This document shows positions 7,393 to 7,925 of a stretch of 7,997 nucleotides of DNA, piece by piece (within the stretch, counting starts at the first letter, position 1; each line of letters starts with the position of its first letter). Made by a program: the position numbers and the translations under genes. The notes beneath the pieces were generated by a model that saw only the letters and a list, made by a program, of their open reading frames with translations, did not search any database and had not been told where the DNA came from. The stretch lies in NCBI RefSeq assembly GCF_003334335.1, contig NZ_QOWQ01000069.1, one strand, 5' to 3'. Origin of the DNA: Escherichia coli (GTDB taxonomy: Bacteria; Pseudomonadota; Gammaproteobacteria; Enterobacterales; Enterobacteriaceae).

Positions 7393-7769
7393 GAAGCTGA
7401 CCAGACAGTCGCCGCTTCGTCGTCGTCCTCTTCGGGGGAGACGGGCGGAGGGGAGGAAAGTCCGGGCTCCATAGGGCAGGGTGCCAGGTAACGCCTGGGG
7501 GGGAAACCCACGACCAGTGCAACAGAGAGCAAACCGCCGATGGCCCGCGCAAGCGGGATCAGGTAAGGGTGAAAGGGTGCGGTAAGAGCGCACCGCGCGG
7601 CTGGTAACAGTCCGTGGCACGGTAAACTCCACCCGGAGCAAGGCCAAATAGGGGTTCATAAGGTACGGCCCGTACTGAACCCGGGTAGGCTGCTTGAGCC
7701 AGTGAGCGATTGCTGGCCTAGATGAATGACTGTCCACGACAGAACCCGGCTTATCGGTCAGTTTCACCT
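7393..7769 (+). ncRNA. rnpB: RNase P RNA (M1 RNA), bacterial type A, 377 nt
   Basis: Begins GAAGCTGACCAGACAGTCGCCGCTTCG and contains the universally conserved P4 region (GGAAAGTCCGGGCTCCATAGGGCAG ... ACAGAACCCGGCTTATCGG), ending ...GTTTCACCT. Matches the E. coli M1 RNA as I recall it, over its full length. Confidence 0.97.
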
Positions 7770-7778
7770 GATTTACGT

Positions 7779-7808
7779 AAAAACCCGCTTCGGCGGGTTT
7801 TTGCTTTT
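7779..7808 (+). terminator. Rho-independent terminator of rnpB (first copy)
   Basis: AAAAACCCGC-TTCG-GCGGGTTTTT followed by GCTTTT: GC-rich 5-bp core stem with a TTCG loop, flanked by an A-tract and T-tract, about 10 nt past the mature 3' end. Confidence 0.7.
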
Positions 7809-7892
7809 GGAGGGGCAGAAAGATGAATGACTGTCCACGACGCTATACCCAAAAGAAAGCGGCTTATCGGTCAGTTTAACCTGATTTACGTA

Positions 7893-7925
7893 AAAACCCG
7901 ATACGGCGGGTTTATGCTTTTTGAG
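7893..7925 (+). terminator. Degenerate second terminator copy within the rnpB 3' repeat
   Basis: AAAAACCCGATACGGCGGGTTTATGCTTTTT: weaker stem (CCCG/CGGG) than copy 1, with an interrupted T-tract. Confidence 0.35.

Follow-up and report, generated by a model that had tools for sequence, protein, structure and literature searches.

The stretch of DNA analysed here, called the window throughout, comprises 7,997 nucleotides of an Escherichia coli contig (NZ_QOWQ01000069.1, assembly GCF_003334335.1). The genes yhaV, prlF and garD occupy its minus strand, whereas its plus strand encodes garP, garL, garR and garK, behind which lies rnpB. The features discussed below lie at its right end:

7357..7385, plus strand: rnpB promoter-like site, GTGACA, 17-nt spacer, TATACT (consensus scan, 10 of 12 matches)
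7393..7769, plus strand: rnpB, full-length gene of the class A RNase P RNA (M1 RNA) (Rfam RF00010)
7720..7820, plus strand: copy 1 of the repeat, 101 nt (repeat search and alignment)
7777..7809, plus strand: terminator T1, 12-bp stem (7777-7788 / 7793-7804), UUCG loop, T-rich tail TTTTTGCTTTT
7821..7933, plus strand: copy 2 of the repeat, 113 nt, the sole extra unit in the window, terminal and partly decayed
7823..7879, plus strand: short ORF MNDCPRRYTQKKAAYRSV, 18 aa (translation), with GGAGG at 7809-7813
7842..7859, plus strand: unit-specific segment GCTATACCCAAAAGAAAG in place of AGAACC (alignments)
7890..7925, plus strand: weakened terminator T2, stem 7894-7900 / 7907-7913 with 3 outer pairs, 6-nt loop, tail TTTATGCTTTTTG
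7937..7997, strand not given: right flank, 61 bases, no matches

The rnpB gene matched RF00010 with 318.6 bits (E 2.1e-104) over model positions 1-367, and the promoter-like site sits 7 nt upstream of the Rfam start of the RNA at 7393. In all E. coli genomes compared, the rnpB annotation lies beneath the matching stretch. The 2.9 kb ahead of the right flank are 99.6% identical to E. coli, and the GarK protein of the window is the commonest allele in this species. Two long open reading frames of 97 and 159 aa occur on the minus strand at window positions 7239-7767, antisense to garK and rnpB; overlapping a ribozyme gene, they are almost certainly spurious. A separate observation concerns the viral contig IMGVR_UViG_3300013101_000011, where an RNase P class A-like RNA of ~209 nt (L094 896-1104, minus strand) lies within a cluster of eight tRNA genes. 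It reached 49.7 bits against RF00010, below gathering, with both model ends matched and the whole specificity domain missing, and may represent a phage-borne miniature RNase P RNA.

A preliminary description of this DNA had claimed a tandem duplication of the 3′ end of rnpB and its terminator. Repeat search, Rfam and alignment agree that two copies lie head to tail, and that the duplicated part begins with the last 50 nt of the gene, as the repeat starts at 7720 and the Rfam end of rnpB is 7769. The gapped alignment of 7720-7820 with 7821-7933 has 89 identical columns out of 101 (88.1%) and one gap of 12 nt, while the repeat search returned an ungapped 88-nt match between 7730-7817 and 7843-7930 with 84% identity. 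From the repeat offsets of 101 and 113 it follows that the copies differ by 12 nt in length. An exactly matching 21-mer, previously placed at 7721 and 7822, does exist, but its positions are 7720-7740 and 7821-7841, so that the earlier ones were one base off. Self-comparison left no doubt about a significant direct repeat: the longest exact direct repeat in 7300-7997 measures 22 nt, against a mean of 8.5 and a maximum of 11 in 200 shuffles. The array is absent from the output of Tandem Repeats Finder for the window, which fits an array of only about two copies, one of them with an indel.

The rnpB part of copy 1 comprises J18/2, the 3′ strand of P2, J2/4, the 3′ strand of P4 and the 3′ strand of P1. 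After these last 50 nt of the gene, copy 1 continues with a short 3′ trailer, T1, the T-rich tail and a spacer ending in GGAGGGGCAGAA. In copy 2, the internal segment that had been called substituted is real in so far as AGAACC (7742-7747) stands opposite GCTATACCCAAAAGAAAG (7842-7859), but it is not a like-for-like substitution: GCTATACCCAAAAGAAAG consists of a 12-nt insertion in J2/4 plus a CC-to-AG change in the 3′ strand of P4. Both changes hit the conserved ACAGAACCCGGCUUA block, which spans J2/4 and the 3′ strand of P4 and is universally conserved in RNase P RNA; in the alignment, the block of copy 2 is interrupted by the 12 nt and its CC is replaced by AG. Copy 2 additionally carries a C-to-A change at 7878. 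Due to the insertion and the CC-to-AG change within the conserved ACAGAACCCGGCUUA block, copy 2 is unable to provide RNase P RNA with a working 3′ end. In the Rfam search of the window, only 7393-7769 passed RF00010 as class A RNase P RNA, and the corresponding units of E. coli K-12 score 18.8 and 20 bits against this model, whose gathering score is 100. Copy 2 is, as had been suggested, a partial pseudo-3′-end with a hairpin that is weaker yet still terminator-like.

The hairpin of T1 has a predicted folding energy of -19.4 kcal/mol (z -4.54), and none of 200 shuffles was equally stable. The rnpB T1 is a characterised terminator (PMC3643576). Due to an A tract upstream of the stem, T1 is nearly symmetrical and may therefore be active on both strands. 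In K-12, the T1 hairpin matches positions 96-121 of the RsmY model, a generic terminator module, with a score far below gathering; the hairpin of K-12 unit 2 matches this module on both strands. The hairpin of copy 2 is degraded, as the preliminary description had it: T2 has a stem of 7+3 bp, a 6-nt loop and a U tract broken as UUUAUGCUUUUU, and folds with -11.9 kcal/mol (z -2.32) versus -19.4 kcal/mol for T1. Four pairs of its 7-bp stem are G-C pairs, and a terminator scan flags 7894-7913 followed by ATGCTTTTTG. Judged by the predicted fold, T2 is a weaker terminator than T1. A back-up terminator role of copy 2 is plausible, and its value in the window may be small, the hairpin being weak and the U tract interrupted.

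Published transcript data for K-12 bear on termination at this locus. The sole entry in the Term-seq table is the processed 3′ end at 3270216 (Adams et al. 2021, PMC7815308 supplement), which lends no direct support to use of T2. DirectRNA-seq, counted in windows of 800 nt on either side of the mature 3′ end, gave 30,653 reads upstream and 11,200 downstream (PMC7815308 supplement). A Rho-dependent termination region is placed at 3269111 on the minus strand, that is, ~1.1 kb downstream of rnpB, on the same strand and antisense to yhaC; its upstream/downstream reads are 2111/34 without and 2831/107 with bicyclomycin (PMC7815308 supplementary file 2). The reads downstream of the mature end, together with a Rho-dependent region 1.1 kb further on, imply that some transcription passes T1, and since that region lies on the rnpB strand well beyond the gene, some transcription passes the entire repeat array. 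Independently of these data, two alleles of the rnpB T1 occur in E. coli, the K-12 type ACGTAAAAACCCGCTTCGGCGGG and a longer type AACGAAAACCCGCCAGCGTAAACCGGCGGG. The longer allele leads to a first unit of 108 nt and is similar to the E. albertii and E. whittamii terminators; T1 allele loci are that of O111 RM9322 (L081 1094-1310) and also L004, L007, L053 and L065.

By its sequence, the repeat in the window is one allele of the known rnpB 3′ array of E. coli. Reed and Altman reportedly described, in PNAS in 1983, 113-bp repeats with terminators and ORFs 3′ of the M1 RNA gene, and we take the array of the window to be theirs. That repeats 3′ of E. coli rnpB had been described before was already stated in the preliminary description, and the K-12 sequence indeed has the array. 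A full-text literature search found no text mentioning the rnpB 3′ repeats. K-12 MG1655 has an identical copy 1 at the end of rnpB, then two full 113-bp units carrying intact terminators and one degenerate terminal unit; past the array come a REP cluster, another vestige (TAAGATGAATAAATATCTACGG) and yhaC, which is convergent. The window has the same architecture. Its repeat starts within rnpB, ~50 nt ahead of the mature 3′ end, and runs head to tail, the extra unit of 113 bp is 12 nt longer than copy 1 and contains the 18-nt segment of K-12, and each unit has a hairpin, with that of T2 weakened. Copy 2 matches K-12 unit 2 in 102 of 113 positions and the terminal unit in 100 of 113. The terminal unit is degenerate both in K-12 and in the window, a decay at the end of the array, and strain RM14721 has copy 1 and a degenerate unit only. 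The particular variant of copy 2 was found at no place with at least 95% identity in 5,426 complete E. coli genomes.

The number of copies and the length of the unit had been expected to vary and to be of use as a strain marker, and both do vary. With the 113-nt unit as query, 13,014 places were found in 5,399 of the 5,426 complete E. coli genomes, 1 to 9 in each with a median of 2, a count that is slightly low for strains with the other T1 allele. Units occur in lengths of 101/108 and 113/120 nt. Direct motif counts in the rnpB 3′ flanks of five strains gave:

IHE3034 (B2): 1 copy, plus a vestige
O157:H7: 2 copies
O111 RM9322: 2 copies, with a 108-nt first unit and a different T1 allele
K-12: 4 copies
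O104:H4: 5 copies

As many E. coli, for example of group B2, are without extra units, the array is dispensable.

Further observations concern the far end of the array. A vestigial unit start (GCTTTTGGTGCACAGGGTAAGATGAATA..TCTACGG) is present in K-12 beyond the REP cluster (L002 2640-2700, minus strand) and in IHE3034 right after T1 (L083 1275-1310), so that a trace of the array survives even in “single-copy” strains. The REP elements of K-12 separate this vestige from the terminal unit and look like an insertion within the array. In some strains, a transposase gene of IS621, a member of the IS110 family, is found just past the array, within the REP region that separates rnpB from yhaC (O104:H4, L082 1611-2513, and L072 4411-5391).

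In the window, homology to the E. coli array stops at about 7936 (TTGAGTGC..TTTATT). The remaining bases, 7937-7997, had no BLAST match in 5,426 complete E. coli genomes or in phage records and no match in metagenome contigs in two exact-pattern scans, and they have no 15-mer in common with any of the fetched loci. Contigs encoding an identical GarK showed ordinary E. coli arrangements only, and the right flank was not found among them. On its reverse strand, the flank contains an open frame that enters from beyond the window; the flank may be the end of a divergent yhaC-like gene. The window might also come from a Shigella or an uncommon E. coli lineage in which another neighbour lies downstream.

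The layout is not confined to E. coli. A scan of species-representative genomes for two exact 15-mers GATGAATGACTGTCC spaced 80-110 nt apart returned 68 stretches from about 60 species, a number that is not a prevalence due to the exact 15-mer requirement; the same requirement selects in part for a conserved 5′ 21-mer. The genera include Escherichia (E. albertii, E. whittamii and others), Citrobacter, Klebsiella, Raoultella, Enterobacter, Kosakonia and Cedecea, and further Atlantibacter, Pantoea, Erwinia, Pectobacterium, Serratia and Rouxiella. On every fetched stretch that includes the 5′ part of rnpB, the array lies directly 3′ of the gene. The number of copies ranges from 2 to 7 per species (loci L003-L070, e.g. 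L023 1189-1816, L043 10059-10401, L041 4037-4450 and L067 203-963). What looked like a second locus in Citrobacter youngae and in Enterobacter sp. CC120223-11 turned out to be a contig break inside one array.

The length difference between the first and the later units recurs in these species: the first spacing is typically ~12 nt below the later ones (96/108, 93/105, 106/118, 120/133 and 117/129), and the segment from CCACGAC to GGCTTA measures 19-20 nt in extra units (18 in three species) and 7 nt in rnpB. Two related types of insertion occur, GCTATACCCAAA and GCTnTnnATGAA, and among the scanned species only Atlantibacter sp. RC6 (L026) has an insertion-free duplicate. Downstream of the insertion, the tails of the extra units (trailer, terminator and spacer) have a median identity of 92% to the rnpB tail of their own genome and of 65% to the tails of other species; between species, identity is 0.74 for the insertion and 0.65 for the tails. 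Species-specific variants of the 5′ 21-mer (CCAAGAC, CCAACGAC) recur in the units of the same species. In Pectobacterium, a Serratia species and Rouxiella, the units have a specific AACGCC, where their own rnpB has AACTCC. A terminator-like hairpin with a T tract was detected in 64 of 66 rnpB tails, 61 of 66 internal extra units and 45 of 70 terminal units across species.

Unit tails that resemble the rnpB tail of their own genome, variants mirrored between gene and units, and a shared insertion together indicate a single old origin of the unit with its insertion, followed by ongoing homogenisation within each genome, i.e. concerted evolution. As far as sequence comparison can tell, the duplication is neither recent nor specific to E. 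coli, since the insertion-bearing unit spans the Enterobacterales. No description of this order-wide pattern was found in the searchable literature. What is new here is the insertion-bearing layout after rnpB in about 60 Enterobacterales species.

We propose, as by far the most probable reading, that the array consists of tandem pseudo-3′-ends with back-up terminators, shaped by unequal recombination. In each unit, the final 50 nt of RNase P RNA are copied together with the trailer, the Rho-independent terminator and a short spacer. The 12-nt insertion in J2/4, along with changes in the 3′ strand of P4, keeps the extra units from working as RNase P 3′ ends. We infer the recombination mechanism as well as the terminator role: unequal crossing-over and gene conversion would let the array grow and shrink and would homogenise it with the gene's own tail, and selection on rnpB would exclude the insertion from copy 1. 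The unit is probably old, because the insertion-bearing architecture is present across the Enterobacterales. An RNA polymerase that has passed T1 would meet the next terminator, so that the units might serve at most as fail-safe terminators. The near-symmetrical hairpins may also work in both directions and thereby insulate the highly transcribed rnpB from its neighbours.

A reading that we consider unlikely, and the best of the alternatives, is that the extra units are a selected RNA element produced from read-through transcripts and carrying copies of the 3′ strands of P2 and P1. Such an element might serve as decoy or regulator when M1 RNA folds, when RNase E processes its 3′ end or when the protein subunit binds, with the insertion preventing formation of a catalytic core. 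More broadly, and with equally little probability, an ancient element could have been selected behind rnpB in the Enterobacterales, either as an RNase P RNA decoy or regulator or as a two-way insulator; the conserved 12-nt insertion would then, as part of the same doubtful reading, be what makes a copy of the gene end safe to keep. The position of the insertion and the architecture are common to about 60 species from several families of the Enterobacterales, the insertion is still recognisable while trailers and terminators diverge, the AACGCC of Pectobacterium, the Serratia species and Rouxiella distinguishes the units from their own rnpB, and transcription in K-12 goes on beyond the mature 3′ end. 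A neutral array would be easily lost, as has happened in B2 E. coli, yet many genera keep a recognisable insertion, which leaves room for some selected role. This order-wide persistence is the only real hint of a role at the RNA level.

The structural analyses point away from such an element. A hairpin in which the 5′ half of the insertion pairs with AGAAnGC and so masks the P4 strand was considered and rejected: over 59 distinct units from about 55 species, it was paired in 67.2% of cells compared with 67.5% in shuffles, without excess covariation. The consensus fold of the whole unit (RNAalifold) contained only an invariant 6-bp helix, UGACUG/CGGUCA, that is copied from rnpB, with a covariation term of 0.06. 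In Rfam searches no family matched the unit above gathering, and even at permissive thresholds the K-12 array gave only chance matches, terminator modules and sub-threshold RNase P fragments; a structured non-coding RNA is thus backed by neither a family match nor covariation. Many E. coli strains, such as those of B2, lack extra units altogether, the copy number is unstable and the single extra unit of the window is decaying.

It is very improbable that the units encode a small basic peptide. Such a peptide would start at the ATG in AGATGAATG, which is preceded by GGAGG, and in K-12 ATGA stop-start overlaps would link successive frames. In the window, GGAGG (7809-7813) lies 9 nt ahead of the ATG at 7823, and the K-12 units contain arginine- and lysine-rich ORFs of 38 aa, whose TGA overlaps the next ATG; Reed and Altman are said to have noted ORFs in the repeats in 1983. 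The frame is 18 aa long in the window, however, where the stop codon TAA at 7877-7879 comes from the C-to-A change at 7878, and 9 aa long in 63 of 136 extra units across species, with a range of 9 to 143 aa. Unit lengths vary modulo 3, and the stop-start overlap is therefore unconserved. The start of the frame is plain rnpB sequence, and RefSeq annotates no CDS at the K-12 units. Although GGAGG and ATG are present, a small-protein gene was thus rejected due to the unconserved ORF length among relatives, and we judge the short ORF of the unit to be non-coding.

Direct repeats of the 3′ ends of stable RNA genes typify integration sites in tRNA and tmRNA genes, and the units, as direct repeats of this kind, might be taken for scars of site-specific integration by mobile elements targeting the 3′ end of rnpB, but we find this the least credible of the readings: the units are uniform (about 105-135 nt) and follow one another head to tail without intervening cargo, rnpB homology flanks the insertion on both sides, which an att crossover would not give, double matches in one genome are contig breaks within one array, no integrase lies downstream, where the genes vary by genus and are ordinary (TdcA, DOPA dioxygenase, amidotransferase and DeoR-type regulators; by a crude ORF pick, 27 are co-directional and 24 convergent), and no unit-like or attP-like copy was found in viral contigs.

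Taken as an array of tandem pseudo-3′-ends with back-up terminators, the feature in the window is a known and dispensable part of the E. coli rnpB locus and in itself matters little. The array can mislead the annotation of terminators and of the 3′ end of rnpB, short-read assemblies break at it, as seen in the contig breaks inside the array in two species representatives, and it offers a usable length polymorphism between strains. In the wider pattern, the gene of an essential ribozyme is accompanied across a bacterial order by a self-made, crippled copy of its 3′ end and terminator. Despite their homogenisation with the tail of the gene, the copies keep a 12-nt insertion, which would be concerted evolution checked by selection on the RNA gene.

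The closest known system is the array of E. coli K-12, which has the garK-rnpB locus, the identical copy 1, the unit structure and GCTATACCCAAAAGAAAG all in common with the window. In contrast to the one extra unit of the window, K-12 has two full units and one degenerate extra unit, and while its array is followed by a REP cluster and yhaC, that of the window gives way to unmatched sequence. Compared with repeats of the VNTR/MLVA type in intergenic regions, the rnpB array is likewise polymorphic within a species in the number and length of its units, but its unit derives from a functional RNA gene and carries a terminator. As in att-site duplications of tRNA and tmRNA genes, a stable RNA gene has its 3′ end directly repeated; the rnpB units differ in being without cargo, integrase and attP, in their regularity and in their internal insertion. 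Tandem intrinsic terminators follow highly expressed stable RNA genes, for example as T1-T2 of rrnB. The rnpB array resembles rrnB T1-T2 in its serial terminators of hairpin and U tract behind a strongly transcribed non-coding gene, whereas its extra terminators come as duplicates of the gene's own end, each with a disabled pseudo-3′-end and in a number that varies between strains.
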